Source: Escherichia phage alia
Direction: 5' to 3' (one strand)
Sequence record: NC_052655.1
Length of the DNA: 64,000 nucleotides
Both the position numbers and the translations under genes were made by a program. Position 1 is the stretch's first letter; each line of letters opens with the position of its first letter. Positions 1 through 63,740 of the stretch are shown here, piece by piece. Under the pieces are notes generated by a model, which was given only the letters and a program-made list of their open reading frames with translations, was not told where the DNA came from and ran no database searches.

Positions 1-49
1 TTGTATATAGTGACAATATAATCTCAATAAAACATATATGAGGCAAGAA

Positions 50-451
50 ATGAAAAAATTATTGATCGCTGGTTTAATCTCTTTTGGCATGGTTGGAACA
101 TCTAGCGCGGCGATATCCTCCACAGTAGCAGAATTAAGCGCCGTTGATGCAATGGAAAACGTCATGCTTATTAATAATGCGATCCCCGATGAAATCATGG
201 AGGATTCACACATGATCGCTTATGGTGCTGTTACACAACTAACGGCAAAAATAGATAAATCTATTGCTAATGGCTTAAATGAAGATGTACCATGTGAAAT
301 TATTACCAGTGTGCTAACGACTCAAAATTTTACGCCGTGGTTAAAAAGTATTCAAAAGGTACACAGCACCGCCGCAGATCGTAGCAATGAAAAACTGGTG
401 TCAGCACTTGCAACGTATACCCTAGCAAAATGCACCGAAATAAAAGATTGA
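50..451 (+). CDS. hypothetical secreted/periplasmic protein (N-terminal signal peptide)
   Basis: ORF track 38..451; start moved to ATG 50 (GAGG about 8 nt upstream). N-terminus MKKLLIAGLISFGMVGTSSAA has the charge/hydrophobic/AxA pattern of a Sec signal peptide. Confidence 0.5.
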   Translation: MKKLLIAGLISFGMVGTSSAAISSTVAELSAVDAMENVMLINNAIPDEIMEDSHMIAYGAVTQLTAKIDKSIANGLNEDVPCEIITSVLTTQNFTPWLKSIQKVHSTAADRSNEKLVSALATYTLAKCTEIKD

Positions 452-476
452 CAACATAGAAAGCACGTTATAAGAT
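448..476 (+). promoter_or_regulatory. sigma70-like promoter (TTGACA, 17 nt spacer, TAAGAT)
   Basis: TTGACA at 448-453, 17-nt spacer, TAAGAT at 471-476, followed by AAGGAG RBS and ATG 499. Confidence 0.5.
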
Positions 477-498
477 ACACACAACAAAGGAGAACTAC

Positions 499-801
499 AT
501 GAACGGCATAGCTAAAACGTTTTTTCTTTTTTCTGGTGTAAATAATCCATCAATAAAAGTCGATAGTGTAAAAGAAAACAATACTATCACCGCTAAATTG
601 TTTCAAGATGAAACAAATAACGTGCTAATCATTAATCTTAAAGAAATAACGAAAGGTTATTATACTATTGCTTACCATGCGATCTATCATGCGGGTACTA
701 GTGAGGAAGTGCAAACAAGCAACAACGAAAGCGCGGCGCTACCTGGTGATCTGGTGCTGGGTGTTATCAGTTTAATTGTCAATGATTTTTTTAAGGAGTA
801 A
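499..801 (+). CDS. hypothetical protein (100 aa)
   Basis: ORF track; AAGGAG RBS 7 nt upstream of ATG. Confidence 0.55.
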   Translation: MNGIAKTFFLFSGVNNPSIKVDSVKENNTITAKLFQDETNNVLIINLKEITKGYYTIAYHAIYHAGTSEEVQTSNNESAALPGDLVLGVISLIVNDFFKE

Positions 802-805
802 AACC

Positions 806-901
806 ATGCCCTATTTACATTTATTTTTCGGGATCTTATTGTCAGGATCTTTTTTCTTCTGTATACTTGTTTCTATTGTAAACCACGTTTTAAGACATTA
901 A
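806..901 (+). CDS. small hydrophobic peptide (31 aa), candidate membrane peptide
   Basis: Not in ORF track (too short). AAGGAG 7 nt upstream of ATG 806; translation MPYLHLFFGILLSGSFFFCILVSIVNHVLRH is a single predicted TM helix. Confidence 0.3.
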   Translation: MPYLHLFFGILLSGSFFFCILVSIVNHVLRH

Positions 902-910
902 GGAAACAGC

Positions 911-1030
911 ATGAAAATTATTCCCGTACAATATAGCGTAATAAATCCAGCATACGAGGAAGGAAGGAAAACAAGCATGGCTTTATGTTGTATTGCTACT
1001 ATAGCCATGTTGTTATGCATTGTGTTTTAA
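911..1030 (+). CDS. small hydrophobic peptide (39 aa)
   Basis: Not in ORF track. AAGGAAACAGC precedes ATG 911; translation MKIIPVQYSVINPAYEEGRKTSMALCCIATIAMLLCIVF has a hydrophobic C-terminus. Confidence 0.3.
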   Translation: MKIIPVQYSVINPAYEEGRKTSMALCCIATIAMLLCIVF

Positions 1031-1059
1031 TAGGTTTTATAGTTGTACGCTTTAAAGGC

Positions 1060-1088
1060 TTGACAATTTTTTGTTATGCTTTAAACTA
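1060..1088 (+). promoter_or_regulatory. sigma70-like promoter candidate
   Basis: TTGACA at 1060-1065; weak -10 (AAACTA/TATATC) 17-18 nt downstream. Confidence 0.35.
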
Positions 1089-1130
1089 TATCTTGAAAAC
1101 GGCAAAGGCCGCAAACAAAAGGGTAAAATT

Positions 1131-1454
1131 ATGAAATCTGTGATCGGTGTTTATTTGGATAACTCTGATTTTTTCTATCATCGTGCTCGTTTCCTTGATG
1201 CGATTGAAATGATAGAATCAGGCTTTAAAGAGTATCGCCTTGCACATGATGACCTGGAAGCATTACAGGGCAATAGTGTTTTTACATTGCAAGCTAAAGC
1301 ACTATGCAAAAGCCGGATCGACATTGCGAGCAAAAAGATAGAACGCGGCATGTCCTGGTTACGCACCGCAGAAATCAACATGGGGCAATGGTACGGCGAA
1401 AACTTAGAAAATAAACATGCTTTTGTCAATGTAGAAAATATTGAAGATTATTGA
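1131..1454 (+). CDS. hypothetical protein (107 aa)
   Basis: ORF track 1071..1454; start moved to ATG 1131 because the track start lies inside the promoter. Confidence 0.5.
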   Translation: MKSVIGVYLDNSDFFYHRARFLDAIEMIESGFKEYRLAHDDLEALQGNSVFTLQAKALCKSRIDIASKKIERGMSWLRTAEINMGQWYGENLENKHAFVNVENIEDY

Positions 1455-1516
1455 TTGACAGCACACCTGATAAGGAGTATATTGTATCTCATAGAGCGGG
1501 GAAATGGTTTCCCCGC
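1455..1516 (+). promoter_or_regulatory. promoter plus 5' stem-loop cassette
   Basis: TTGACA 1455-1460, 17-nt spacer, TATATT 1478-1483, then GC-rich hairpin GCGGGG-AAATGGTTT-CCCCGC (1497-1516) with no U-tract, then RBS and ATG 1537. Confidence 0.55.
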
Positions 1517-1536
1517 CTTAACAGAAGAGATAAGAT

Positions 1537-1821
1537 ATGAAGATCACAAAAGCACTTTCCAACTATGCAGCACGTCGCGGATTATGCTTATCCGTTGAAA
1601 ACTTAGGGAAAGAAGATTTTTTGTGCTTTTGGGAGCTTGAGAATGATAATGAGTGGATCTTCTCTTATTCTATCTGCGAAGATCAAAACGGTTGTTTATT
1701 AACCTGGCGCGGTAATATCTATCTACCGGAAGAAATCAAAGAAGAATTGCCAGGCACGATCATGACTGAGAAACAGCTTAAGGAAGTGATTAATTTTGTA
1801 GGGCAAAACATTAAAAAATAA
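1537..1821 (+). CDS. hypothetical protein (94 aa)
   Basis: ORF track; preceded by promoter/stem-loop cassette and purine-rich RBS. Confidence 0.55.
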   Translation: MKITKALSNYAARRGLCLSVENLGKEDFLCFWELENDNEWIFSYSICEDQNGCLLTWRGNIYLPEEIKEELPGTIMTEKQLKEVINFVGQNIKK

Positions 1822-1822
1822 T

Positions 1823-1882
1823 TTGACACTAGGCAAACAACGTAGTAAAGTTTATCACATAGGGCGGGAAATGGTTTCCCGC
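1823..1882 (+). promoter_or_regulatory. promoter plus 5' stem-loop cassette
   Basis: TTGACA 1823-1828, 17-nt spacer, TAAAGT; hairpin GCGGG-AAATGGTTT-CCCGC at 1864-1882, near-identical to the hairpins at 1497 and 3509. Confidence 0.55.
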
Positions 1883-1905
1883 TCACAACAGAAGAGAAAC
1901 ACATC

Positions 1906-2076
1906 ATGATCCCGACTATGTTTTACGTATCGCGCAAAGGTCACAATATTTTTTGGTCTGAAGATTTAAATGAAGCCATGACGTTTGCCCGTGATCGTGT
2001 TGCTATCGGTGGCGTTAACATTACCGTAACCGATGAAAACGGCATTGAATACTATAACGGCGACGATGAAGAGTAA
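1906..2076 (+). CDS. hypothetical protein (56 aa)
   Basis: Not in ORF track (<60 aa). ATG 1906 follows cassette and AGAAGAG RBS; translation MIPTMFYVSRKGHNIFWSEDLNEAMTFARDRVAIGGVNITVTDENGIEYYNGDDEE. Confidence 0.45.
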   Translation: MIPTMFYVSRKGHNIFWSEDLNEAMTFARDRVAIGGVNITVTDENGIEYYNGDDEE

Positions 2077-2084
2077 TTAATAAG

Positions 2085-2105
2085 GCGGGGGAGTATTCCC
2101 CGCCG
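2085..2105 (+). promoter_or_regulatory. intergenic GC-rich stem-loop without promoter (RNA processing/stability element or weak terminator)
   Basis: GGCGGGG-GAGTATT-CCCCGCC hairpin between stop 2076 and ATG 2124; no TTGACA upstream and no U-run downstream. Confidence 0.4.
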
Positions 2106-2123
2106 TCAATAAAGAGGTAAATC

Positions 2124-2393
2124 ATGAAAATATCTTTGGACGTTGCAATCAAGGCCATCGAATCCGGTTACACCCTGGTAAAAGATGATAAGGCTAAAAC
2201 CGTGCACCACGTTAACAAGGAAACAGGCGAAAGCATGATCACATATAAAGCCGCCTACTTTCTCCAATCAGTAGCAGATCCGCGCGTACAACGCCAGGTT
2301 ACAGCGGCTATTGCTAAAAAATTATGTGCTTTACAGGGCACAAGTTTTAACGAGATCGCCCCGTGTTTTGACTGGTCGAGCTTGAAAAAATAG
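2124..2393 (+). CDS. hypothetical protein (89 aa)
   Basis: ORF track; AAGAGG RBS upstream. Confidence 0.55.
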   Translation: MKISLDVAIKAIESGYTLVKDDKAKTVHHVNKETGESMITYKAAYFLQSVADPRVQRQVTAAIAKKLCALQGTSFNEIAPCFDWSSLKK

Positions 2394-2394
2394 T

Positions 2395-2452
2395 TTGACA
2401 ACAATTATAAATCGGGTAGAATGTATTTCGTAGGGCGGCAATAGTGCCGCTC
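2395..2452 (+). promoter_or_regulatory. promoter plus 5' stem-loop cassette
   Basis: TTGACA 2395-2400, TAGAAT -10 near 2417-2422, hairpin GGGCGGCA-ATAG-TGCCGCTC at 2433-2452. Confidence 0.5.
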
Positions 2453-2473
2453 ACAACTAAAAGAGAAATCAGC

Positions 2474-2668
2474 ATGGCGCTTAAAAAACTAACAAGCAAT
2501 ACTCGTTGGGATGAAATCGACGGAGAAGTTTACATTTTCGCCCGTAAACCAGGTGATCAAAAATGGTCAAAGGCTTTTACTTGCCACCCTGCAACAATAG
2601 ATCTAATAAAAAGTAAAGGTTTACGTGAAGCAGTAGCGAGAAGTTTACTGATCCCTTATAAAAAATAG
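2474..2668 (+). CDS. hypothetical protein (64 aa)
   Basis: ORF track 2444..2668 starts at GTG inside the hairpin; ATG 2474 (AAAGAG RBS upstream) chosen instead. Confidence 0.5.
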   Translation: MALKKLTSNTRWDEIDGEVYIFARKPGDQKWSKAFTCHPATIDLIKSKGLREAVARSLLIPYKK

Positions 2669-2669
2669 T

Positions 2670-2731
2670 TTGACAATATGCTGTTATCTGGTAAAGTGTA
2701 CGACATAGGGCGGGGCAATAAGGCAACGCCC
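2670..2731 (+). promoter_or_regulatory. promoter plus 5' stem-loop cassette
   Basis: TTGACA 2670-2675, -10 TAAAGT, imperfect hairpin GGGCGGGGCAATAAGGCAACGCCC at 2708-2731. Confidence 0.5.
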
Positions 2732-2749
2732 ATTAATGAGGGTAGAATC

Positions 2750-2854
2750 ATGTTAGAGAAAATTTTCACGGTTGTAATAGTGGGCCTGGCGTTATCGGTT
2801 GGATTGGTTGCAACTATGGCTAACATGATCCTATCTTCCCACGGTATTGGATAA
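2750..2854 (+). CDS. small membrane peptide (34 aa)
   Basis: Not in ORF track. GAGGGTAGAATC precedes ATG 2750; translation MLEKIFTVVIVGLALSVGLVATMANMILSSHGIG is one hydrophobic helix. Confidence 0.35.
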   Translation: MLEKIFTVVIVGLALSVGLVATMANMILSSHGIG

Positions 2855-2864
2855 GGTGAATCAA

Positions 2865-3080
2865 ATGATCACGAATAAGACAGGTAAAACAGAATTTTTA
2901 CGCGGCTTGCAAATAGGTAAACCTGAGATCTGGCATTGCACTAAATCCGCGCATAATGAAATGAAAGATTTTACCGCTACTTTACAACGTGTTAAAATAT
3001 CTATCACACAGAAAAAAGCCTTGTTAGTAGTAGAAAACGAGATCCCGCAAACCATTATTATTGTCGAGCGTACAGCATGA
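2865..3080 (+). CDS. hypothetical protein (71 aa)
   Basis: ORF track 2847..3080; start moved to ATG 2865 (AAGGTG 6 nt upstream) to avoid overlap with the small upstream ORF. Confidence 0.45.
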   Translation: MITNKTGKTEFLRGLQIGKPEIWHCTKSAHNEMKDFTATLQRVKISITQKKALLVVENEIPQTIIIVERTA

Positions 3081-3463
3081 AAACTGAAATCATTAACGAA
3101 ATGATCAACGGCTATAAAGAAGCCTTTATTTTTGCCGAACCAGCGACGGATCACAATGGGGAATATATTGAGAATCTAGACGATTATGATTTTTCTCCTA
3201 GCGCCCTGAAACGTATTACCAGCGATGTGACCGCCTTTTGTAGTGCCAATGTTGCCGCTATCTCTGAGGCAATGAGCGACGGCGCAACAGCAAACCAGAT
3301 CGGGAATGACTTACATTTCACCCGTAACGGTCACGGCGTAGGCTTTTGGGATCGCCCTGAAATATACACTACTAACACCGCCAACCGCCTAACAAATGCA
3401 GCTAAATTAATGCCATCGGTGCATGCTTACATTGGTGAAGATAATTTGATTTATATTGAATAA
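3077..3463 (+). CDS. hypothetical protein (128 aa)
   Basis: ORF track; start overlaps upstream stop (ATGA coupling). Confidence 0.55.
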   Translation: MKTEIINEMINGYKEAFIFAEPATDHNGEYIENLDDYDFSPSALKRITSDVTAFCSANVAAISEAMSDGATANQIGNDLHFTRNGHGVGFWDRPEIYTTNTANRLTNAAKLMPSVHAYIGEDNLIYIE

Positions 3464-3469
3464 AAAGTA

Positions 3470-3529
3470 TTGACACCGATCCCCAATATGGTATTATTTA
3501 CCACGTAGGCGGGAAATGGTTTCCCGCCA
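3470..3529 (+). promoter_or_regulatory. promoter plus 5' stem-loop cassette
   Basis: TTGACA 3470-3475, 17-nt spacer, ATTATT/TATTAT -10, hairpin GGCGGG-AAATGGTTT-CCCGCC at 3509-3529. Confidence 0.55.
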
Positions 3530-3551
3530 GGTAATCAAAAAGGTAAATACT

Positions 3552-3941
3552 ATGCGCAACCTGGTTTCTGTTTCTAACGTTGAAAAATTCCAATCTTTAC
3601 AGGGTATCGTTAACAACGTAGCGCCTTTTTTAGTAAACGGCTTGATTGCAAAGATGAAAAATAAACATCATGCGGCATGGTCTGCTTATTGCTTTGATAA
3701 TGATGAAAAAGCGGCTGAAATGATGTTAGATATGCTGTTAGATAGTGTAGAAACATCTTTACCGGAAAACATCGCAGAAGAGATCACCTATCGTTATAAT
3801 ATGGCGATCACTTACCAGGAGGTTGCGCAATTCAACATGATGGATGATGACGAACAACAGGATCAAGAAATGTTTTGGGAGTATGCAGATCGTCAATCGG
3901 CTTTTGATGAAAAGTTAGCGATGTATTATAACGAATATTAA
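3552..3941 (+). CDS. hypothetical protein (129 aa)
   Basis: ORF track 3516..3941 begins inside the hairpin; ATG 3552 with AAAAAGG RBS chosen. Confidence 0.55.
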   Translation: MRNLVSVSNVEKFQSLQGIVNNVAPFLVNGLIAKMKNKHHAAWSAYCFDNDEKAAEMMLDMLLDSVETSLPENIAEEITYRYNMAITYQEVAQFNMMDDDEQQDQEMFWEYADRQSAFDEKLAMYYNEY

Positions 3942-3955
3942 TACACGGTAAAAGA

Positions 3956-3982
3956 AAGGGGCGCACTAAGCGCCCTTTTTTG
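3956..3982 (+). terminator. rho-independent terminator
   Basis: GGGGCGC-ACTAA-GCGCCCC hairpin followed by TTTTTT. Confidence 0.6.
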
Positions 3983-4326
3983 TATTCTTTTTTCACGATG
4001 GAAACAACACGTAAAGAATAGGCGTAAAGGTGGCGTAAAACAGTCTAAAACCGATTATAACCGCTTAAACAAGGTAACAATGACTAATCACCTTGCCAGG
4101 ATGAAAAAGCTGTTAGAAAGCTGTTTAGAGCGTTTAAAGCACATAGGAAATAACTTGCTTTTTATCTTGCCTTTTATCCTGCTTTTGATTATTATTATGG
4201 AACGGGCGGCACCTGGGGACAGGGGAAGATAATCACCGGAAGATCTTATCATATATTGATAGCTTCCCCCTATCAAACAACAAAACATTAAAGAGATAAA
4301 CTATCAAATCTTTACAATCCTACCTA

Positions 4327-4361
4327 TTGACCGATAAATCACAACAGTTTAATATTGTTTT
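4327..4361 (+). promoter_or_regulatory. sigma70-like promoter (TTGACC, 17 nt spacer, TAATAT)
   Basis: TTGACC at 4327-4332, 17-nt spacer, TAATAT; about 40 nt upstream of ATG 4404. Confidence 0.45.
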
Positions 4362-4403
4362 TAGAGGTTAGAATATTCCCCAAACGAAAACAGGAAAAAG
4401 AAA

Positions 4404-4640
4404 ATGAAAGAAGTCATGATCCTCAAAAAATCACCTATTTTACGTGGCGGTTTTATCGCTTACTCTGATGATCTGTTAATTGCAACAGTTGCAAAAATAC
4501 TAAAATCAGAAGAGGATAGTAAAAACGGCGTTTATCGTATCTGTTTCACCCGTGGAAAATTACAAGGCAAGATCGCCTATGCCTTTGATTTACAAGATGT
4601 AAATGATAAAATCTGCGCTGTTATTGATTATGCAAAATAA
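4404..4640 (+). CDS. hypothetical protein (78 aa)
   Basis: ORF track; purine-rich leader (ACAGGAAAAAGAAA). Confidence 0.5.
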   Translation: MKEVMILKKSPILRGGFIAYSDDLLIATVAKILKSEEDSKNGVYRICFTRGKLQGKIAYAFDLQDVNDKICAVIDYAK

Positions 4641-4652
4641 TTAACTTTCTTA

Positions 4653-4681
4653 TTGACACCGGATCACGCTTACATTATTAT
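4653..4681 (+). promoter_or_regulatory. sigma70-like promoter (TTGACA, 17 nt spacer, TATTAT)
   Basis: TTGACA 4653-4658, 17-nt spacer, TATTAT 4676-4681. Confidence 0.5.
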
Positions 4682-4727
4682 TTATCACGTAGGGCAAATC
4701 ATTTTAAACGGTAAACGAGGAAACACC

Positions 4728-5111
4728 ATGAGCAATATCATCAACCTGGCGGCTACTGTAAACGGTAAAGATTTTAACGGCGCTGTAGATCGTGATCCTA
4801 TGTGGTGCTTATCAGTGTTTAAAGGCGATCTGGTTGAAGTTAGAACAACCGAAGGGTATAGCGATGATTATAAATGCGAGATCCATTTACATAACTGGTA
4901 CACGGGTAAAACTTATGCGCTGAATCATGCGTTTATCGGGAAAATTGAATATCGCGAGATGATCGACGAAGAAACGGGGCAAGATTTTAGCGAGCATGTT
5001 TATATTCGTTCAGAAACATTAGCCGAACGTTTGATCGAGAAAATGAAAGCAAAAAATAAAATTAATTTATCTCATTGGATTGATATAACAAACGATCCGG
5101 CTTATCAGTAA
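4728..5111 (+). CDS. hypothetical protein (127 aa)
   Basis: ORF track 4653..5111 begins inside the promoter; ATG 4728 with GAGGAAACACC RBS chosen. Confidence 0.55.
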   Translation: MSNIINLAATVNGKDFNGAVDRDPMWCLSVFKGDLVEVRTTEGYSDDYKCEIHLHNWYTGKTYALNHAFIGKIEYREMIDEETGQDFSEHVYIRSETLAERLIEKMKAKNKINLSHWIDITNDPAYQ

Positions 5112-5127
5112 ATAACATTTCATACAA

Positions 5128-5153
5128 GGGCGCTTATTGCGCCCTTTCTTTTT
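5128..5153 (+). terminator. rho-independent terminator
   Basis: GGGCGC-TTATT-GCGCCC hairpin followed by TTTCTTTTT. Confidence 0.6.
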
Positions 5154-5357
5154 ACCTAAATAAAGATGATAGCTTTTACCTATCAAAAACGTTCACCGAA
5201 AAAAGTGAATAGATCGCGGTATCGAGCTAATCAAGGAGCAGATGAACAACCATACCATGAAGATCATAAGGCGCTTACAGCGTGTTTTAGACCGCTTATT
5301 TTTAATTTCTTCATGTAACTATCTGGCAAAAACAGCCTTTTTCTTGTCTTTCCTCTT

Positions 5358-6488
5358 AAATGATAATCATTCTTATTTATAGCTGATTATTTATGCAATA
5401 AACTGCATAATGCAATAATGATAATCATTCTTAACTTAAGACCATCTAACTTATAAAATAATAAGTTATCTAACTAAATTAAAGCTAATTATCTTACTTT
5501 TATTTATAACATACTGTTACTATCTTATTGATAACCTTATATTAAACAACAATAATCAATGTAAATCATTACTAAGCTAACTATAATCTATCTAACCCTT
5601 AAAACTACAATTATAATCTATCAAATTGTTGCACAAAGTAACTATTAAATTGTTAGTAACATTGCTAAATAATTAATATCCTATCTATTTATGATCTAAT
5701 CTTTACCTCCCTATCTATTACCTAAATAACCATTTCATGTGGTAATCATTTCATACAATAACTATAACAAGAAATATAATTCGCAAGCGTATCATTAGCA
5801 GCCTATGCCGGACACATAGGCGGCTAATAATAACGCAACTACACACCCCACATAATAACCATCACCGATAGTTATTATTTGTGCTTATGTAGCTTGCAAC
5901 AATTGCAAGCGCAACAATATACATGGTATATTGTATCCCTTACATTGTTGCGGTGCGTTATTATTAGCTAATGTTTAGAACATTGGCTATAATATAAGCT
6001 AAGTAATAAGCTAGTCAATAATAAACATAATGAATAATGACATTAATGATCATAATGCGCCACCCTCCAGGGGGCGCTATGTGAACACAAAGAAATCATT
6101 CTTGTCAAGAAAAATATCACCCTATTGCGCAAAATTATTTATATCTGAATAGATGATTTTTCATACTATTGCCCCCTATAACATACCTCATTTGTTGAGC
6201 CTACTTTCTTAAAAGCGCAATAAAGTAGAATTATCTTGATTTTTAGTCGGTTTTATAGTACAGAAAGTATGCAAATGATAATCATTATCAGCTATCCTCC
6301 AGGGTGGCACTATTTCACGCCAGATCATTTCATTTGGCAAGGTGTATATAGATGTTTAGAAATGCCAAGCCATTGATTTACTTAGAATTTATCTGTTTTG
6401 TTGTGAGTAGTACCTTTCTTGCTTAGAAAATAATCAAAAGTCTTATAAGTCATTGAATGATAATGCAAATGATAATTATTCTCATTGA
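5358..6488. repeat. AT-rich non-coding region with iteron-like repeats (core AATGATAATCATT) and repeated CCTCCAGGG(G/T)G(C/G)CAC motif
   Basis: Copies of (A)AATGATAATCATT(C/A)T near 5358, 5415, 6269 and 6455 (degenerate copy near 5741); CCTCCAGGGGGCGCTAT at 6064 and CCTCCAGGGTGGCACTAT at 6297. No credible ORF. Confidence 0.55.
5803..5965. repeat. palindrome-rich segment (hairpin GCCTATG...CATAGGC; inverted TAATAATAACGCAAC / GCGTTATTATTAGC)
   Basis: Read directly from sequence: 7-bp inverted repeat at 5803-5826 and longer inverted repeat arms flanking 5830-5960 with the central TTGCAACAATTGCAA palindrome. Confidence 0.45.
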
Positions 6489-6604
6489 TATTTGAGGGGG
6501 ACGGTCGGCAGAAATCGGGGGGCGCTGAAAATCGCGTTAAGCACCTCTCGCAAGCGAGCAGTATTTTGCGGCAAGTTATTGATATTATTGACTTTACGCT
6601 TATG

Positions 6605-6711
6605 AAAAGGGGTGTGTCGAAATAAATCGGGTATACCGGAAAATTTTTTGTGGCATAGATATTTATTTGTCTATATTATGTACAAAGGGGTGTGTTAAAA
6701 ATAATAGGTAT
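6605..6711. repeat. direct repeat AAAGGGGTGTGT-(N)-AAATAA-(N)-GGTAT, two copies
   Basis: AAAAGGGGTGTGTCGAAATAAATCGGGTAT (6605-6634) and CAAAGGGGTGTGTTAAAAATAATAGGTAT (6683-6711). Confidence 0.5.
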
Positions 6712-6779
6712 ATATAGAATAATTGATAGGGAAATCCTATACTAAATCCTTCATTAATGATGTTCCTATGTTGCTGTTC

Positions 6780-6808
6780 TTGTAACAGATGAAAAGACGC
6801 TGTATGAT
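6780..6808 (+). promoter_or_regulatory. candidate promoter for the downstream plus-strand gene array
   Basis: TTGTAA 6780-6785, 17-nt spacer, TATGAT 6803-6808; lies upstream of the first gene of the array (ATG 6932). Confidence 0.35.
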
Positions 6809-6931
6809 GTGTAGCATGAGACGTAAATTTATAAGATGCAAATAATGCTTGCATTGAATAGAAATGTCTGTACACTGTGTTCCATAAGATATGCAATATC
6901 GCGCATAACAAACTACTAATGAGAGGTGTAA

Positions 6932-53823: not shown

Positions 53824-54717
53824 ATGAAAGTTAGTATTCTACATGGTGTTGACTGTTATGTTACTGATGTAGACGTTAAAGTCTTTACATTCTCTGGTGG
53901 AGAACAACATGTTCAACTAGACACGAATCTATCAGGTTTCAATCATGCTACAGACAGAATCTTACTCTCTTTAGAAGTAAGATCTGCTAAAGACTTGATG
54001 ACTTTGGTTATGACTAAGAATGCATTGGACAATATGCTATATCATAAACCATATTGTGTTGATTTGCTCATGTTGTATGTGCCATATGCACGACAAGACA
54101 GAGTGTGTGAACCTGGGGAAGCATTCGGAGTTAAAGCATTTGCTTCTATAATTAATTCATTAAATTTCTCACGTGTTATCGTTGCTGATCCACATAGTGA
54201 TGTTACTCCAGCGGTGTTTGACAGACTCTGTGTAATACCTCAAGAAGAGATTGCTTACGAAACTTTAAAGTGGAAGTTACGTATGGAGAATTTTGCTCTT
54301 GTTAGTCCTGATGGTGGTGCTCTTAAGAAAATATTTAAATTATCTAAGAAAATGTCTTTAGATGTGTTCTGTGCAGAGAAGGTTAGAGATACTGCAACAG
54401 GTGCTATTGTTCGTACAGACATTTCTGTACAGGATTTCAATAAGCGTAACCTGATGATCGTAGATGATATCTGTGACGGCGGTAGAACTTTTATTGAATT
54501 GGCTAAAGTGCTACGTGCTCGTAACGCAGGTAAGATTGAGTTATATGTTACACACGGTATCTTTTCTAAAGGTCTTAAAGAGTTAAGTGAGCACTTTGAC
54601 TGCATTCATTCTCTTAATGTGTGGGAAGATAACATCCAAGAAGATTCCGGTGTTCTTGTTAAGAATCAGTCAGATTTGCAACAACAAATTGTATCTCCAT
54701 ACGTGTGGAATTTTTAA
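53824..54717 (+). CDS. ribose-phosphate pyrophosphokinase (PRPP synthetase)-like protein
   Basis: 297 aa; phosphoribosyl-binding loop MIVDDICDGGRT (compare Prs VDD-x-x-DTGGT); N-terminal half parallels Prs. Confidence 0.7.
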   Translation: MKVSILHGVDCYVTDVDVKVFTFSGGEQHVQLDTNLSGFNHATDRILLSLEVRSAKDLMTLVMTKNALDNMLYHKPYCVDLLMLYVPYARQDRVCEPGEAFGVKAFASIINSLNFSRVIVADPHSDVTPAVFDRLCVIPQEEIAYETLKWKLRMENFALVSPDGGALKKIFKLSKKMSLDVFCAEKVRDTATGAIVRTDISVQDFNKRNLMIVDDICDGGRTFIELAKVLRARNAGKIELYVTHGIFSKGLKELSEHFDCIHSLNVWEDNIQEDSGVLVKNQSDLQQQIVSPYVWNF

Positions 54718-54727
54718 ATAATAAGTG

Positions 54728-54762
54728 TTGACAATAGGGAGTATGCTTAGTAAGATACTCCC
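54728..54762 (+). promoter_or_regulatory. promoter overlapping a stem-loop
   Basis: TTGACA 54728-54733, 17-nt spacer, TAAGAT 54751-54756; inverted repeat GGGAGTAT...ATACTCCC (54737-54762) encloses the -10. Confidence 0.45.
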
Positions 54763-54788
54763 ACACTAACAAACAAGGAGACATAACT

Positions 54789-56522
54789 ATGAATATTTTT
54801 GCACCTTTTGCTACTGATTGGTATAAACCTGGTCACAAGCAGATGTACAACCAAAATACAAAACTTATTTTCTCTAATTTAACTCCTCGTAATGATAAAA
54901 ACTTTGCACACTATGCAGATCGTGAAGCACGTGGTGTAATTGTTTTAGGTATTCGTCGAGCAGTTACTGATGCTCTTGTAACTATGTGGGATAGCTTCTT
55001 TAAAATGTCTCGTAGTGCAGCAGTAAATAAGTTTTATCGTATGTCTAAAAATGCATTAGGTGCTTCTGCTCCTTCTGCTGAATGTTGGGGAGAATTGCAC
55101 GATTTAGGTTATCTTCCGCTGGAAGTTCGATCTCTGCCAGAAGGTGTTTTGTGTCCTATTGGTGTTCCTGTGTTTACTGTGCATAATACTTTAGAAAAAT
55201 TCTTTTGGTTAACTAACTATGTGGAAACACTATTGTCAGATGAAACTTGGAAGACAATGACTAATGCTACAGCAGCTTTTCAGTATAAGCGTATTGCTAT
55301 GGCATATGCGATGGCAACGTGTGATAATATTGATCACGTTAACTTCCAGTGTCATGATTTTAGCCTACGTGGTTTAAGTAATATCGAAGATGGTTATAAG
55401 AGTGGTATCGCTCATTTGGCATCTTTCACAGGAACAGATAACATTCTGGCTATTGAGACTGTGCATGATTATTATGGTATTGATTATGATCAGTTTGTTG
55501 CAGGTTCTATTCCGGCAACAGAACATTCAGTAGCAACGACTAACATTGGAGCTATTGTTGAAGATCTGAAGAAACATTTCCCACATCTTAAAGATGATGT
55601 TGATGGGCTTCGTTATGTAGCAGAGAAAGAGTTTCTTCGCCGCTATATCGAAGAAATTGTTCCAGAAGGTTTTTGTTCATATGTAGCAGATTCTTATGAC
55701 TACTGGGCTGTCTTGACTCGCATTCTGGTAGAATTGAAAGAATCCATTATGTCACGAAATGGTCGTCTTGTTATTCGTCCAGATTCAGGAGATCCGGTTA
55801 AAGTTGTTGCAGGATACAATGTTGAATCTTTTGATAACTATGAAGACCTTTTAAATAATGGTATTGCTACAGCCACTGAAGTAGTTCATTTGGCTGATGT
55901 TAATAAGTATTACAATGTTCTTCAGGATTGCAGTGTTGCTGATTGTATTGATGAAACTTATGAGATTCCTTATTGTGAAGCAGTAGGTTCTATTCAAATC
56001 CTTTGGGAAGTGTTTGGTGGTACTATCAACCGAAAAGGCTACAAGGTTCTTGATCAGCACATCGGTATGATTTATGGTGATTCTATTACTGTTGAACGAG
56101 AACACGAGATCTTACGCCGACTGAAGAAGAAAGGTTTTGCAGCTTCCAATATTGTATTTGGTGTTGGTAGTTATACTTATCAGTTCAATACACGAGATAC
56201 TTTTGGTTTTGCTGTTAAAGCAACAGGTAGTATCATCGGTGAACACGAAATTTTGGTAAGTAAGGAGCCTAAAACTGATCCTGGTAAACGTTCTGCAAAA
56301 GGTTTTATTAAGGTTGTTAAGGATACAAACGGTAAACTTTCTCTCGTGGATAATCTTTCTTTTAAAGATATTCAAGATGAAGACAATGAGTTAAAAGTTA
56401 TCTTCAGGGATGGTACGGTTATTACACCACAAGTAGAAGGACGTGATGAAACATTTACGGATATCCGCAACCGTGTTGATGTAGAGGTTCTTCGTACTAT
56501 GGGAACCATCCAGGTTGACTAA
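54789..56522 (+). CDS. nicotinamide phosphoribosyltransferase (NAMPT/NadV)-like protein
   Basis: 577 aa; N-terminal FATDWYKPGHKQMY parallels the NAMPT TDSYK-x-x-H motif; size and glycine-rich central segments are consistent with the type II phosphoribosyltransferase fold. Confidence 0.7.
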   Translation: MNIFAPFATDWYKPGHKQMYNQNTKLIFSNLTPRNDKNFAHYADREARGVIVLGIRRAVTDALVTMWDSFFKMSRSAAVNKFYRMSKNALGASAPSAECWGELHDLGYLPLEVRSLPEGVLCPIGVPVFTVHNTLEKFFWLTNYVETLLSDETWKTMTNATAAFQYKRIAMAYAMATCDNIDHVNFQCHDFSLRGLSNIEDGYKSGIAHLASFTGTDNILAIETVHDYYGIDYDQFVAGSIPATEHSVATTNIGAIVEDLKKHFPHLKDDVDGLRYVAEKEFLRRYIEEIVPEGFCSYVADSYDYWAVLTRILVELKESIMSRNGRLVIRPDSGDPVKVVAGYNVESFDNYEDLLNNGIATATEVVHLADVNKYYNVLQDCSVADCIDETYEIPYCEAVGSIQILWEVFGGTINRKGYKVLDQHIGMIYGDSITVEREHEILRRLKKKGFAASNIVFGVGSYTYQFNTRDTFGFAVKATGSIIGEHEILVSKEPKTDPGKRSAKGFIKVVKDTNGKLSLVDNLSFKDIQDEDNELKVIFRDGTVITPQVEGRDETFTDIRNRVDVEVLRTMGTIQVD

Positions 56523-57263: not shown

Positions 57264-57271
57264 TATTCAAG

Positions 57272-57347
57272 GTTCCATAGCTCACTGACGAGAGCGCACA
57301 CCTCATAAGTGTCGAGGGCAGGGATTGTAACCCTGGGGAACCACCAT
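57272..57347 (+). tRNA. tRNA-Met/Ile2 (anticodon CAT)
   Basis: Hand-folded cloverleaf: acceptor GGTTCCA/GGGAACC (one mismatch), anticodon loop CTCATAA, 3' CCA encoded. Confidence 0.55.
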
Positions 57348-57377
57348 TTAAAAGGAGGTGCTATGCATCTCCTATAT

Positions 57378-57463
57378 GCAAGTGTGGTGGAATTGGTGAT
57401 ACACATTGTGCTTAAAACGCAACGCTTAAATGCTTGAGGGTTCGAATCCCTCCACTTGCACCA
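57378..57463 (+). tRNA. tRNA-Leu (anticodon TAA)
   Basis: Acceptor GCAAGTG/CACTTGC, anticodon stem TTGTG/CGCAA with loop CTTAAAA, long variable arm, T-loop GGTTCGAATCC, CCA encoded. Confidence 0.7.
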
Positions 57464-57478
57464 ACACCTAAAAATATC

Positions 57479-57507
57479 TTGACATTTACTTAGTTTTTTG
57501 TTATAGT
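57479..57507 (+). promoter_or_regulatory. sigma70-like promoter inside the tRNA cluster
   Basis: TTGACA 57479-57484, 17-nt spacer, TATAGT. Confidence 0.5.
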
Positions 57508-57518
57508 CGTTATGAAAA

Positions 57519-57600
57519 CGGGGTGTATCTCACCTGACTTCTAATCAGGCGTTAACCGAGTAATTGGAGTATGCAGGTTCGAATCCTGTCACCCCGGCCA
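57519..57600 (+). tRNA. atypical tRNA-like gene (possible anticodon TCT)
   Basis: Perfect acceptor CGGGGTG/CACCCCG and T-arm GCAGG-TTCGAAT-CCTGT with CCA, but only one internal hairpin (CCTGA-CTTCTAA-TCAGG) and no recognisable D-arm; isotype uncertain. Confidence 0.4.
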
Positions 57601-57618
57601 AAAAGTTTTAAAAACTAC

Positions 57619-57647
57619 TTGACAAGCAAGATAGTTTTATGTTAGAT
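57619..57647 (+). promoter_or_regulatory. sigma70-like promoter inside the tRNA cluster
   Basis: TTGACA 57619-57624, 17-nt spacer, TTAGAT. Confidence 0.45.
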
Positions 57648-57663
57648 TTAAAGTATGATAACG

Positions 57664-57753
57664 GGAAGGTAGGGCGCAGCGGTGCGCAACCAGGTTTGAA
57701 CCCTGGCCCATTGTAGCGATACGGTGATGGTTCGACTCCATTATCTTCCTCCA
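57664..57753 (+). tRNA. tRNA-Ser (anticodon TGA)
   Basis: Acceptor GGAAGGT/ATCTTCC (G-U at pair 6), anticodon stem CCAGG/CCTGG with loop TTTGAAC, long variable arm, T-loop GGTTCGACTCC, CCA encoded. Confidence 0.65.
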
Positions 57754-57798
57754 AATTCAATTAGTAACAGATTCAGGTTGTTTTGAATAATTAAAAAT

Positions 57799-57884
57799 GG
57801 TAGATTGGTGAAATGGTAGCCACAACAGTTTGCTAAACTGTCGTCGGAAACGGCGTGTAGGTTCAAGTCCTACATCTACCGCCA
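57799..57884 (+). tRNA. tRNA-Ser (anticodon GCT)
   Basis: Acceptor GGTAGAT/ATCTACC, anticodon stem ACAGT/ACTGT with loop TTGCTAA, long variable arm, T-loop GGTTCAAGTCC, CCA encoded. Confidence 0.7.
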
Positions 57885-58054
57885 AGTTATCTTTAATGTA
57901 GCTTGTTGCTCTTAGTTGCTTGGTGTAACTTTTTGGAAGAATGGCTGCAACCATCTTACTTTAATAGAGTAAACTTTCGGCAGATGGCCCCCACCATCTT
58001 ACCGATACCTCATAGTCAGTGGTGCGAACACTGGCTATTTTAAAGATAATTTAT

Positions 58055-58129
58055 ACATCGTTAGCCAAGCGGTAAGGCACTTGACTTTTAATCAAGGGAG
58101 CGAAGGTTCGAATCCTTCACGATGTACCA
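58055..58129 (+). tRNA. tRNA-Lys (anticodon TTT)
   Basis: Acceptor ACATCGT/ACGATGT, anticodon stem CTTGA/TCAAG with loop CTTTTAA, T-loop GGTTCGAATCC, CCA encoded. Confidence 0.65.
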
Positions 58130-58134
58130 AACAC

Positions 58135-58221
58135 GTAGGTATCGCATAGCGGCAATTGCTGGAGACTGTAAATCTCCTGCCCTTCGGGGCTTCGTTGGTT
58201 CGAGTCCAACTACCTGCACCA
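58135..58221 (+). tRNA. tRNA-Tyr (anticodon GTA)
   Basis: Acceptor GTAGGTA/TACCTGC (one G-U), anticodon stem GGAGA/TCTCC with loop CTGTAAA, long variable arm, T-loop GGTTCGAGTCC, CCA encoded. Confidence 0.65.
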
Positions 58222-58228
58222 AATTAAA

Positions 58229-58313
58229 GATGGATTGGCCTAGTGGTTGGGCGACGGACTGTTAATCCGTGAACGAAAGTTCTAGCAAGGTTCAAATCCT
58301 TGATCCATCGCCA
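58229..58313 (+). tRNA. tRNA-Asn (anticodon GTT) with unusually long variable region
   Basis: Acceptor GATGGAT/ATCCATC, anticodon stem ACGGA/TCCGT with loop CTGTTAA, extra hairpin GAAC-GAAA-GTTC in the variable region, T-loop GGTTCAAATCC, CCA encoded. Confidence 0.55.
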
Positions 58314-58392
58314 AATAGTGCTTGTAGAGTTAATAGAAACCTCTAGAATTTTCTAGAATTGTAGGTATCAAACCCTACCAAGCAAATATTTT

Positions 58393-58467
58393 GCTCCTAT
58401 CGTATAACGGCTATTACGGTTGCCTTGTAAGCAACTTATCAGGGTTCGAGTCCTTGTGGGAGCACCA
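58393..58467 (+). tRNA. tRNA-Thr (anticodon TGT)
   Basis: Acceptor GCTCCTA/TGGGAGC (one G-U), anticodon stem GTTGC/GCAAC with loop CTTGTAA, T-loop GGTTCGAGTCC, CCA encoded. Confidence 0.7.
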
Positions 58468-58489
58468 ATTTAACTCTAAAGGAGTGTAT

Positions 58490-58813
58490 GTGACAGAAAA
58501 AGAGTTAGAGAAATATTTTAATATCAATGTTTTCGATGGTTTTGATGCTATTGAAGATGTTGAAAGATATTATGAAGTAGAGTTAGATAAGGATAACATT
58601 GTAATTCTTTCTGCCACTTATGATTGTGCATATTATGAAGGCGAATCTCACGTTTATTTCTATGATATGAAAACATCTTTGTTTTATGAAGTACACGCAT
58701 ATCATTGTTCTTGTTATGGCTTAGAAGGTCAGTGGGAACCTGAAGAAATAGGTGATTTGAGCTTTACGGTTGCATATCTAAACAGACGTGGCGCATCTAC
58801 TATTTTAAAATAA
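58490..58813 (+). CDS. hypothetical Cys-rich protein embedded in the tRNA cluster (107 aa, GTG start)
   Basis: ORF track 58391..58813 overlaps tRNA-Thr; start moved to GTG 58490, 5 nt after AAGGAG. C-terminal YHCSCYG cysteines. Confidence 0.5.
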   Translation: MTEKELEKYFNINVFDGFDAIEDVERYYEVELDKDNIVILSATYDCAYYEGESHVYFYDMKTSLFYEVHAYHCSCYGLEGQWEPEEIGDLSFTVAYLNRRGASTILK

Positions 58814-58827
58814 ATATTAAAAGCCTC

Positions 58828-58856
58828 TTGACAAAGGGGCTAATAATATGTTAGAG
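58828..58856 (+). promoter_or_regulatory. sigma70-like promoter inside the tRNA cluster
   Basis: TTGACA 58828-58833, 17-nt spacer, TTAGAG (TAATAT alternative). Confidence 0.45.
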
Positions 58857-58868
58857 TAATATTGTTAA

Positions 58869-58943
58869 GCGGGTATAGTGTTAATGGTAGCATATGAGGT
58901 TTCCACCCTCCAGGTGCAGGTTCAAGTCCTGTTACTCGCTCCA
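58869..58943 (+). tRNA. tRNA-Gly (anticodon TCC)
   Basis: Acceptor GCGGGTA/TACTCGC (one G-U), anticodon loop TTTCCAC, T-loop GGTTCAAGTCC, CCA encoded. Confidence 0.6.
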
Positions 58944-59042
58944 AGATTATTTAAATGGAATCGCTAGAGAAAATTTCTCTTTTCGCTCATGGTTTTCTCC
59001 TTCAAACTCTAGCGGTTCTTTTTAAGTGATTTTTAGTTTTAT

Positions 59043-59117
59043 TGGAGATTAGCCTAGTGGGAAGGCAACGGCCTTTGAAGTCGTGATGACTAGGTTCGAT
59101 TCCTAGATCTCCAGCCA
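59043..59117 (+). tRNA. tRNA-Gln (anticodon TTG)
   Basis: Acceptor TGGAGAT/ATCTCCA, anticodon stem ACGGC/GTCGT with loop CTTTGAA, T-loop GGTTCGATTCC, CCA encoded. Confidence 0.65.
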
Positions 59118-59124
59118 ATATTTA

Positions 59125-59200
59125 CAGTGCGTAGCGCAGTTGGTAGCGTGGGAGCTTTGGATGCTTCGGGTCGCAGGTTCGAGTCCTGCCGCACTGACCA
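59125..59200 (+). tRNA. tRNA-Pro (anticodon TGG)
   Basis: Acceptor CAGTGCG/CGCACTG, anticodon stem GGAGC/GCTTC with loop TTTGGAT, T-loop GGTTCGAGTCC, CCA encoded. Confidence 0.7.
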
Positions 59201-59205
59201 AATTT

Positions 59206-59280
59206 GCAGAGATAGCTGAGACGGATTAGTGCTACCCTGAAAAGGTAGAAAGGATGGATCGTTACCATCTCTCTGCACCA
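59206..59280 (+). tRNA. tRNA-Phe (anticodon GAA) with non-canonical T-loop
   Basis: Acceptor GCAGAGA/TCTCTGC, anticodon stem CTACC/GGTAG with loop CTGAAAA, T-arm GATGG-ATCGTTA-CCATC (not the usual TTCGAAT), CCA encoded. Confidence 0.55.
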
Positions 59281-59357
59281 AATAACACCATCCAAGGAGT
59301 AGACTTGGTTAACTGTCAATAGCACATTGAGGCTTCTTACAGTGGTGTACTTATTAT

Positions 59358-59442
59358 GGCTAAGTGGTGGAATGGTATACACGATACGCTTAGAACGTAT
59401 TGCCCCAAGGGATTGTGAGTTCGAGTCTCACCTTAGCTACCA
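59358..59442 (+). tRNA. tRNA-Leu (anticodon TAG)
   Basis: Acceptor GGCTAAG/CTTAGCT (G1-U72), anticodon stem ATACG/CGTAT with loop CTTAGAA, long variable arm, T-loop GAGTTCGAGTCTC, CCA encoded. Confidence 0.65.
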
Positions 59443-59457
59443 AATTATTACAGGTTT

Positions 59458-59536
59458 CGCGGGATAGAGGAGTCTGGTCGTCCTCGCCAGTTTCATATGC
59501 TGGAGATCATCGGTTCGAATCCGATTTCCGCCTCCA
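59458..59536 (+). tRNA. tRNA-Met/Ile (anticodon CAT), C1/C72 mismatch
   Basis: Anticodon stem CCAGT/GCTGG with loop TTCATAT, T-arm ATCGG-TTCGAAT-CCGAT, CCA encoded; first acceptor pair is C-C, and D-loop is long. Confidence 0.5.
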
Positions 59537-59613
59537 ATAAATACCTCCATTCTGGTGTAATGATTAAATTACATTGACACTTCAAGGAACTCATAGCCGG
59601 GTAGATTTAAAAG

Positions 59614-59680
59614 AGTATGGTACTCAATATGGCTCCAAACCATAGATCAGGGGGTTCGATTCCTCACCTTGCTGCCAATT
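59614..59680 (+). tRNA. degenerate or D-arm-less tRNA-like element (possible anticodon CCA, Trp)
   Basis: Canonical T-loop GGTTCGATTCC and 3' GCCA, internal hairpin TATGG-CTCCAAA-CCATA, but acceptor pairing is imperfect and no D-arm fits; only about 64 nt before CCA. Confidence 0.3.
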
Positions 59681-59682
59681 AT

Positions 59683-63708: not shown

Positions 63709-63740
63709 AGTCATTTGTCCAGCATTAGCGGAGGTTCTGA

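Follow-up and report, generated by a model that had tools for sequence, protein, structure and literature searches.

The first 5.2 kb of a 64,000-nucleotide (nt) stretch of the Escherichia phage alia genome (NC_052655.1; the whole stretch is referred to here as the window) contains a repeated unit in which an A-rich tract, a sigma-70 promoter, an initially transcribed sequence, a hairpin and approximately 20 unstructured nt bearing a Shine-Dalgarno (SD) sequence lead, in that order, to the start codon of a small open reading frame (ORF). This segment is the plastic, small-ORF early region of a Justusliebigvirus (phi92-like myovirus), and the units within it are probably modular early-gene expression cassettes, in which a 5'-terminal RNA hairpin would serve as an mRNA stabiliser and the sequence shared between copies would feed recombination. 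The element itself is real, conserved and mechanistically interpretable.

A scan of the + strand for TTGACA-16/17-TAnnnT revealed promoters at 1060, 1455, 1823, 2395, 2670, 3470 and 4653, each located just 5' of a gene start. Six genes are equipped with both a promoter of this type and a GC-rich hairpin, five of the hairpins being strong and one weak (Table 1), and the repeated promoter, hairpin and ribosome-binding unit reported in a preliminary description of the sequence is thereby borne out. The hairpins begin 9-12 nt past the -10 box, however, as opposed to the 10-20 nt given in that description. They comprise 8-10 bp and are associated with a conserved initially transcribed sequence, C-R-U-A-G-G-G-C.... 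The near-identity claimed for several copies was also evident, with the 19-mer GCGGGAAATGGTTTCCCGC present as exact copies at 1864-1882 and 3509-3527 (0 matches expected from shuffled sequence) and a third copy at 1496-1516, GCGGGGAAATGGTTTCCCCGC, containing one G:C pair more. Similarly, the copy described as lacking a promoter proved to be a strong hairpin at 2084-2104 (H4), upstream of which neither a -35 nor a -10 box was found. Frequently, the A-rich tract of a cassette coincides in part with the Lys-Lys-stop terminus of the gene preceding it. Indeed, AAAAAATAR-T is situated directly 5' of the -35 box at 1811-1822, 2384-2394 and 2658-2669, and within the composite AAAAAATAR-T-TTGACA (1811-1828, 2384-2400 and 2658-2675) the A-tract also encodes the Lys-Lys-stop termini of three unrelated upstream genes, indicating that the regulatory repeat reaches into coding sequence.

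Folding of the leaders beginning at 1491, 1859, 2077, 2430, 2705 and 3505, which are those of five cassettes and H4, returned free energies of -15.1 to -17.3 kcal/mol (z scores from -3.3 to -4.5), a stability that 0 of 200 shuffles attained. The leader of C1 (from 1095) is weakly folded (-6 kcal/mol, z -1.7) and that of C9 (from 4689) is without structure. A covariance model was then built from an equal-length seed of ten diverse hairpins, an alignment of 21 diverse leaders made with MAFFT having been set aside as inconsistent with the structure. When applied to the 64-kb window, the model identified + strand sites at 1491, 1858, 2079 and 3503 only, the weaker - strand matches representing the same four palindromic sites. 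No Rfam covariance model matched window positions 1-6500 at E values up to 1.

Table 1. Cassettes, promoters, promoter-less hairpin and terminators of the early region. Positions refer to the window; all +1 positions are predicted. Fold values are for the leader, and scores are those of the covariance model.
Feature	Position	Strand	Composition or basis	Fold (kcal/mol / z)	Score (bits)
Promoter without hairpin	448	+	promoter scan		
C1	1060..1133	+	TTGACA(1060-1065)-16-TAAACT(1082-1087); weak 4-bp hairpin CGGCaaagGCCG (1100-1111); SD; ATG 1131; marginal member		
C2	1455..1539	+	TTGACA(1455)-17-TATATT(1478-1483); +1 A1491; hairpin GCGGGGAAAtggTTTCCCCGC (1496-1516); SD; ATG 1537	-15.7/-3.6	34.2
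C3	1823..1908	+	TTGACA(1823)-17-TAAAGT(1846-1851); +1 A1859; hairpin 1862-1884, core GCGGGAAATGGTTTCCCGC 1864-1882; ATG 1906	-15.8/-3.9	35.1
H4, promoter-less intergenic hairpin	2084..2126	+	hairpin GGCGGGGGAgtaTTCCCCGCC (2084-2104) between upstream stop codon (2074-2076) and SD/ATG 2124	-17.3/-3.4	20.6
C5	2395..2476	+	TTGACA(2395)-16-TAGAAT(2417-2422); +1 G2430; hairpin GGGCGGCAatagTGCCGCTC (2433-2452); ATG 2474	-15.1/-3.3	
C6	2670..2752	+	TTGACA(2670)-16-TAAAGT(2692-2697); +1 A2705; interrupted hairpin GGGCG..GC......GC..CGCCC (2708-2731); ATG 2750	-16.8/-4.5	
C7	3470..3554	+	TTGACA(3470)-16-TATTAT(3492-3497); +1 G3505; hairpin GGCGGGAAAtggTTTCCCGCC (3508-3528); ATG 3552	-16.1/-3.6	35.8
C8	4327..4406	+	weaker promoter TTGACC-17-TAATAT; no hairpin; ATG 4404; -35 box is a frequent indel junction		
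C9	4653..4730	+	TTGACA(4653)-17-TATTAT(4676-4681) and conserved CACGTAGGGC; no hairpin; ATG 4728 (T4 gp30.8-family gene)		
Intrinsic terminator	3953..3981	+	canonical, GC stem and T-run; terminator scan		
Intrinsic terminator	5126..5146	+	canonical; end of the + strand small-ORF block; terminator scan		

The position of the hairpin within the predicted transcript was examined in the homologous regions of 18 relatives (19 loci), encompassing six recognised genera and unclassified phages, with 20 sources contributing to the leader count. A hairpin of -9 kcal/mol or below was present within the first 46 nt of 89 of the 149 distinct strong-promoter leaders (60%) as opposed to 11% of 40-nt windows drawn at random from these loci, and at -12 kcal/mol or below the respective values were 54% and 4.8%. 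The stem begins 10-11 nt past the -10 hexamer in 54 of the 89 distinct hairpin leaders, which share the consensus G-T-A-T-C-A-C-R-T-A-G-G-G-C past the -10 box, position 7 being a pyrimidine in 75 and position 8 a purine in 79. A pyrimidine-purine step is the usual -1/+1 preference. Since the step lies at the usual sigma-70 start position, the predicted mRNA would open with R-U-A followed directly by the stem, i.e. with a 5' overhang of approximately 3 nt. Counted from the conserved purine, the predicted start in the window, the overhang would be 3 nt in C3, C6 and C7, 5 nt in C2 and 0-2 nt in C5. A literature search for mapped transcription starts or transcriptomes in Stephanstirmvirinae or Vequintavirinae found none. 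The same layout, with different stems, is present in Seunavirus (PVP-SE1 and GAP31), Avunavirus (Av-05) and a Klebsiella phage, and it recurs across Stephanstirmvirinae and Vequintavirinae. An exact-pattern scan of IMG/VR for TAGGGCGGGAAATGGTTTCCCGC returned a single contig, from a PD06-like genome, and is uninformative with respect to distribution.

Next, sequence variation within the hairpins was analysed. The covariance-model alignment comprised 113 hits in 80 distinct rows, in which 98.4% of stem cells are in standard pairs and all eight pairs (8/8) have changed on both sides; this level of pairing was reached in 0 of 500 shuffles, and sliding the partner column reduced pairing to 41-70%. 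Because the alignment was fitted to the model and its rows are related by descent, orthologues were also inspected directly. In one pair, TH18 (GGGGCAAG/CTTGCCTC) and Av-05 (GGGGAGAG/CTCTCCCC) are distinguished by two compensatory double changes and one G.U to G-C change; a second orthologous pair from TH18 (GGCGGGGA/TCCCCGCC) and Av-05 (GACGGGGA/TCCCCGTC) also has stem changes, and between the C7 orthologues of these phages a stem pair has changed from G-C to A-U in compensatory fashion. It is the structure, therefore, rather than the sequence of the hairpin that is conserved. The + strand rows contain 23 G.U wobbles versus 5 A.C mismatches, and of 76 distinct hairpin cores, 57 fold more stably as + strand RNA and 16 as the - strand (Wilcoxon p = 5e-6), both of which favour the sense RNA. 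Hairpins from one and the same genome vary in their stems, in loop size (3-6 nt, C6 having an interrupted stem instead) and in arm spacing. Across 47 distinct hairpin tops the lower stem is variable and the apex semi-conserved (A-RYRG-U), with a closing A-U pair around AUGG, AUAG, GCGG, GUGG or AUGA; examples in the window are at 1503-1509, 1870-1876, 2440-2445 and 3515-3521. The semi-conserved apex may stem from common descent or from recognition by a factor.

The hairpins do not resemble terminators. The 8 nt past the stem contain a mean of 1.2 T as opposed to the 2.25 expected, and never 4 or more, in keeping with the original observation that a U-tract is absent. The terminator scan left the cassette hairpins unflagged on the + strand, real T-run terminators being located nearby at 3953-3981 and 5126-5146, and no canonical terminator was detected between cassettes in 1000-3900. 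The intrinsic terminator was rejected on the basis of the missing U-tract, and the hairpin behaves as a structured part of the sense transcript. T7 early-type RNase III sites are two-turn duplexes of roughly 20 bp, and an RNase III site was likewise rejected since the stems here are only 8-10 bp.

A limited number of hairpins are not preceded by a promoter. H4 is retained in ESCO8, BME3, ECGD1, PD06 and 536P1, and a different hairpin (GGCGGGAttaaTCCCGCC) occupies the same place in WPEC4, tuntematon and WPEC1. Of 22 covariance-model hits that were seemingly promoter-less, most carry -35 variants (TTGCAA or TTGACT) that lie outside the filter, and the truly promoter-less hairpins reduce to only approximately four orthologous loci. 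As a consequence of these conserved copies, an intercistronic role was added to the explanation. The idea put forward originally, that each hairpin marks an mRNA 5' end, is hence upheld with respect to the fixed downstream position, predicted to be approximately 3 nt into the transcript, and does not extend to the conserved promoter-less copies.

Alignment of junction sequences revealed that cassette recombination deletes, inserts or re-promotes genes and swaps hairpins. In 536P1 (Phapecoctavirus), one cassette consists of the C5 upstream gene and promoter as far as GTATTTCGTAGGGCGG, all but two positions of which match (both differences being in the tail of the upstream gene), and is thereafter identical to C6. 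The C5 promoter is thus fused to the hairpin and gene of C6, and the gene at 2474-2668 is missing, which together indicate a crossover inside the shared TAGGGCGG. In ESCO8 and muut an extra gene (MIEQIK...) lies between an intact promoter-hairpin cassette and a promoter-less leader, and C9 (4653) is a recombinant in which the promoter of that upstream cassette in ESCO8 and muut runs, with GTAGG as the point of junction, into the leader of the gene that follows. For the membrane-peptide gene at 2750 (C6), the hairpin is retained behind at least six different promoter spacers across relatives. Gene 1906 (C3) has kept its promoter and leader, the top of the hairpin being swapped among four forms that are present in other cassettes also; in five phages the C3 orthologues have the same flanks and different hairpin tops. 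At gene 1537 (C2), promoter and hairpin have been replaced together, with a junction at 1523, just past the stem. Further junctions lie at the A-rich 5' edge of cassettes (2387, 2401 and 2659), and a breakpoint at 4331, at the -35 box of C8, is seen in seven relatives. The notion of a recombination hotspot in the preliminary description is therefore supported by hybrid cassettes, and the comparison of related genomes suggested there uncovered gene deletion, promoter and hairpin swaps and replacement of whole units. When cassettes are taken with a margin of 10 nt on either side, amounting to 20% of the sequence, they contain 21 of the 34 distinct homology breakpoints (p ~1e-7), and two only are deep inside a gene. 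Since this enrichment does not hold against non-genic sequence, the statistic is not used as proof and the claim of crossover is carried by the junction alignments; the former reflects gene-level modularity and the latter cassette-to-cassette crossovers.

The physiological role of the hairpin can be approached from its predicted location. Unmodified host RNA polymerase would use the near-consensus sigma-70 promoter, starting at the conserved purine, and the nascent RNA would fold at once into a 5'-terminal hairpin. By analogy with the ompA 5' stem-loop, this structure could limit access by RppH and the 5'-end-dependent RNase E/G pathway, and stabilisation of the mRNA appears to be its most likely role. 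In the absence of terminators between cassettes, read-through transcripts would carry hairpins between cistrons, where they might block 3' exonucleases on upstream segments after cleavage. The predicted outcome is that each small early gene would be expressed strongly and independently of context, and that the 17-45 nt of sequence shared between cassettes would provide homology for the phage recombination system in modular shuffling. T4 infection is known to speed the RNase E/G-dependent decay of host mRNAs (PMC3014915), and gp11 of rV5 has been termed a probable homologue of Srd (PMC3606486). Shielding of its early mRNAs would be advantageous to any phage that raises RNase E activity, which suggests a possible link. 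In the vicinity of the divergent promoters at 53-57 kb, a search with Pfam for RNA-decay factors, Srd-like or other, yielded only PRPP-synthetase-like and NAPRTase genes.

Several observations weigh against mRNA stabilisation by mobile 5' hairpins. A minority of hairpins is conserved without a promoter, and a role solely at primary 5' ends is insufficient to account for them. Many of the cassette copies share descent or have been converted, and the counts therefore do not represent independent events; the covariance-model alignment, in turn, is fitted to structure. The semi-conserved A-RYRG-U apex hints at sequence-specific recognition, for which a pure stabiliser has no need. The predicted overhang of 3-5 nt would be at the upper edge of the protective range in the ompA work. 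With regard to recombination, the enrichment of breakpoints is lost when compared with a non-genic null (21/32 versus 55%, p 0.15), and the statistic alone cannot separate crossover between cassettes from selection against broken genes.

Other explanations of the hairpin were considered alongside stabilisation. It could serve as an insulating attenuator or terminator, as has been proposed for the promoter-early stem-loops (PeSLs) of T4-like phages, halting or damping upstream read-through, with the result that its own promoter alone would drive each gene, and allowing the freshly initiated polymerase to pass. The stem-loop of an RB49 PeSL, when placed between promoter and lacZ, lowered expression to about the same extent as rrnB T1 (PMC2839356), and both the lack of canonical terminators between cassettes in 1000-3900 and the location of promoter-less copies exactly between two genes would be in keeping with such a function. 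Nevertheless, this is regarded as unlikely, since the hairpin is inside its own transcription unit (approximately +4 to +25) and would stop the cassette's own transcripts too, its tail is depleted in T where the real terminators of the region have T-runs, and PeSL stem-loops, which are in or upstream of the promoter, have a different geometry. Alternatively, a protein of the phage or host may bind the hairpin in RNA and thereby control all of the early regulon simultaneously, whether by boxB/N-type antitermination, by timed shut-off of translation or through decay, or by recruiting a processing nuclease. Covarying stems with a semi-conserved apex are a pattern typical of protein-recognised hairpins, the hairpin has a fixed position early in every transcript, and a short conserved tract (CUCACAAC) follows many copies. 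Against this, no candidate binding protein has been identified (an N-like one was not looked for), likeness between the loops is explicable by common descent and gene conversion, stem length and loop vary within one genome, there are no inter-cassette terminators to call for antitermination and Rfam provided no match, and hence control by such a protein is regarded as unlikely. No boxA-like CGCUCUU was noted by eye in the sequence, no dedicated search having been run. An equally small chance is given to the hairpin, with its apex, acting as a 5' recognition tag on transcripts of this promoter class for an RNA-binding factor, phage-encoded or host, by which the early genes would be coordinated and which would be shuffled with the cassettes between subfamilies; such a factor could act, for example, in antitermination, in protection from phage-stimulated RNase E or in timed shut-off.

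Two further explanations dispense with a function for the RNA. The palindrome could be an element of the DNA only, either bound as an operator by a dimeric repressor to shut off early promoters, or forming a cruciform or hairpin through which a recombinase or nuclease would actively mobilise the cassettes. It is perfect or near-perfect and occupies an operator position (+5 to +25), the cassettes clearly recombine, and the authors of the PeSL work speculated on a protein targeting a GGGG...CCCC motif. However, half-sites and spacings differ within one genome (GCGGGAAA-3-TTTCCCGC, GCGGCA-4-TGCCGC and GGGCG-14-CGCCC), which is unlikely for one dimeric protein and led to rejection of a single dimeric DNA operator. 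In addition, the bias of G.U over A.C and the stabler + strand folds point to sense RNA, and crossovers are located in the flanks also (TAGGGCGG and the -35/A-tract), as anticipated for plain homologous recombination. Taken together, these data render an element confined to DNA improbable. Least probable of all is a functionless hitch-hiker copied with a successful promoter by duplication and gene conversion. Many near-identical copies have clearly spread by conversion, and the cassette at 4653 persists without a hairpin in at least five phages, yet the compensatory double substitutions in diverged orthologues and the 98% pairing in 80 distinct sequences indicate selection on pairing, and the layout is kept in Seunavirus, Avunavirus and the Klebsiella phage despite cassette sequences that are otherwise different.

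The closest described system is that of the PeSLs, which are known from RB49/phi1, PST/T4 and nt-1/KVP40 (Arbiol et al. 2010, PMC2839356; Comeau et al. 2014, PMC4122927). Very strong promoters have been described for the PeSLs of RB49, along with gene excision through PeSL-to-PeSL recombination (PMC2839356); excised mini-circles, detectable by inverse PCR, count among the hallmarks of PeSLs. In common with PeSLs, the cassettes described here are repeated intergenic units of approximately 65-100 bp in plastic small-ORF early regions, contain an AT-rich tract, a near-consensus sigma-70 promoter, a G/C-rich stem-loop, an SD sequence and a start codon, and delete, insert or exchange genes by recombination between neighbours. 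The stem-loop of a PeSL, however, lies between or over the -35 and -10 boxes, upstream of the -35 box or just before +1, and has been both read and assayed as a terminator or attenuator of upstream transcription, whereas the hairpin here has a fixed position past the predicted start, in the cassette's own mRNA, and a T-poor tail. Since the position of the PeSL stem-loop is not matched and the phages, from Stephanstirmvirinae and Vequintavirinae, belong to unrelated subfamilies, the cassettes are classed as PeSL-like as opposed to PeSLs.

The cassettes also share features with 5' stem-loop stabilisers of the ompA type and with the synthetic 5' hairpins of expression engineering, in that a simple hairpin lies close to the 5' end (within a few nt, by prediction in the present case) and is followed by an unstructured SD region. 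Emory, Bouvet and Belasco reportedly found in 1992 that E. coli mRNAs are stabilised by a stem-loop that begins within 2-4 nt of their 5' terminus, and from that study of the ompA 5' untranslated region and a later one by Arnold, Yu and Belasco in 1998 it is said to be the structure that matters and not the sequence. Unlike these stabilisers, the hairpins here are multi-copy, mobile, phage-encoded and tied to one promoter class, and their stabilising effect is a predicted one. The early operons of T7-like phages present a further parallel, with recurrent hairpins between early genes that shape early mRNA stability. The T7 sites are long irregular duplexes that are cleaved by RNase III, whereas stems of only 8-10 bp are present here. 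Moreover, a few promoters at the left end serve the whole T7 operon, as opposed to the individual promoters with which almost all of the genes here are provided. Lamassu DdmABC is able to sense T7-like sites as DNA palindromes (PMC11707656). For rV5, PVP-SE1 and Certrevirus, repeated early promoters of a sigma-70-like type are on record (PMC3606486; PMC7344957; promoter features in NC_016071), and these are of the same class and are similarly concentrated among short hypothetical ORFs. Those reports describe promoters and rho-independent terminators only, with no mention found of a downstream hairpin or of cassette recombination, and the GenBank record of PVP-SE1 has promoters annotated and hairpins not. 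An earlier description of the hairpin in Stephanstirmvirinae or Vequintavirinae was not found in a literature search.

With respect to genomic context, window positions 1000-5200 match 180 phage records and are 96.5% identical over their full length to Escherichia phage VEcB (Justusliebigvirus, Stephanstirmvirinae, ~148 kb). In VEcB the cassette array begins approximately 4.5 kb ahead of the first base of the window, and it ends at the terminator at window 5126-5146. In more distant relatives (Phapecoctavirus, then Vequintavirinae), homology is restricted to gene-sized patches. The + strand of the early region encodes a series of small ORFs of 34-129 amino acids (aa), amongst which T4 gp30.8 (PF06019; ORF 4728-5108) is the sole Pfam family over the gathering threshold. 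The segment had been described as looking richer in GC than the remainder; its GC content is indeed raised, only modestly so (0.41 in 2001-4000 versus approximately 0.37 for the whole window), with the tRNA region at 58-60 kb being equally high. The two canonical terminators, taken as 3947-3993 and 5110-5156, form an inverted repeat with 47-nt arms of 79% complementarity around a 1.1-kb segment that has been lost or replaced in several relatives (breakpoints 4313/4331 to 5139/5147). Eleven records labelled 'Campylobacter phage' (host C. jejuni), including MG065639, MG065645 and MG065689, are ~95.5% identical to the region over its full length, and their host labels look doubtful.

Promoter-like sites elsewhere in the window were also catalogued. 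The site at 63647-63744, presented originally as another copy of the unit, combines TTGACA-18-TAAAGT with an 8-bp hairpin (TCTACCCCttcaatGGGGTAGA; leader -20 kcal/mol, z -2.4) and lies between the end of a long ORF, a putative terminase-type structural gene, and a gene with a GTG start. It has the same layout, but was excluded from the hairpin family owing to the unrelated hairpin and its location after that ORF; its hairpin may be either a terminator or a 5' hairpin. Strong promoter-like sites on the - strand at 41511, 39313, 27662 and 19747 have unrelated GC-rich hairpins within 0-25 nt (CGCTCCCacaaaTGGGAGCG, AGGAGAGCtatGCTCTCCT, AACCCCctcacGGGGTT and AAAGCCCCaaccaGGGGCTTT, respectively), of which AAAGCCCCaaccaGGGGCTTT has a T-run and may terminate transcription in both directions. 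On the + strand, near-consensus sigma-70 promoters of a second class (8285, 10448, 11670, 13322, 15215, 54728 and 56937) have leaders of 20-35 nt and no hairpin, from which it appears that the 5' hairpin is specific to the plastic small-ORF region as opposed to all host-type promoters. Beyond the early region, 5320-6930 is an AT-rich tract of approximately 1.6 kb with no ORF longer than 46 aa, which contains three 17-nt repeats spaced by 30-31 nt (5548-5625) together with an inverted repeat of 15 nt whose arms match perfectly (5823-5837 / 5954-5968). Its counterpart in rV5 is the 'non-coding' box, and the records of muut, arall and naswa have 'repeat_region' features close by; several linear records begin or end within the tract, which could be an origin or genome-end region. 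Fifteen tRNA genes are encoded on the + strand at 57271-59758, with strong promoter-like sites at 57479, 57619 and 58828 before or within the array. At 53824-56522, beside divergent promoters at approximately 53.1-53.8 kb, a PRPP-synthetase-like gene (Pribosyltran / Pribosyl_synth) and a NAPRTase-family gene form what looks like a NAD-salvage module.

Phages related to phi92, phAPEC8 and rV5 are widely isolated and are used as therapeutic candidates, and no transcript map for them emerged from a literature search. Provided that the cassettes work as proposed, a simple sequence rule would be available for annotating early transcription units, approximately ten per genome, in two subfamilies. 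The cassettes extend the PeSL concept beyond the T4-like phages and add a second geometry, in which the hairpin is predicted to be inside the mRNA and the likely role of the stem-loop accordingly shifts from termination to RNA protection. As compact and portable promoter-5' untranslated region parts, the cassettes could also be of use in engineering. Conversely, dense GC-rich palindromes may be a liability to the phage, because Lamassu-type defences sense phage palindromes (PMC11707656). For the biology of these phages, the cassettes represent a concrete mechanism, with mapped junctions, for gene-by-gene mosaicism in the region where anti-defence and host-takeover genes usually reside.

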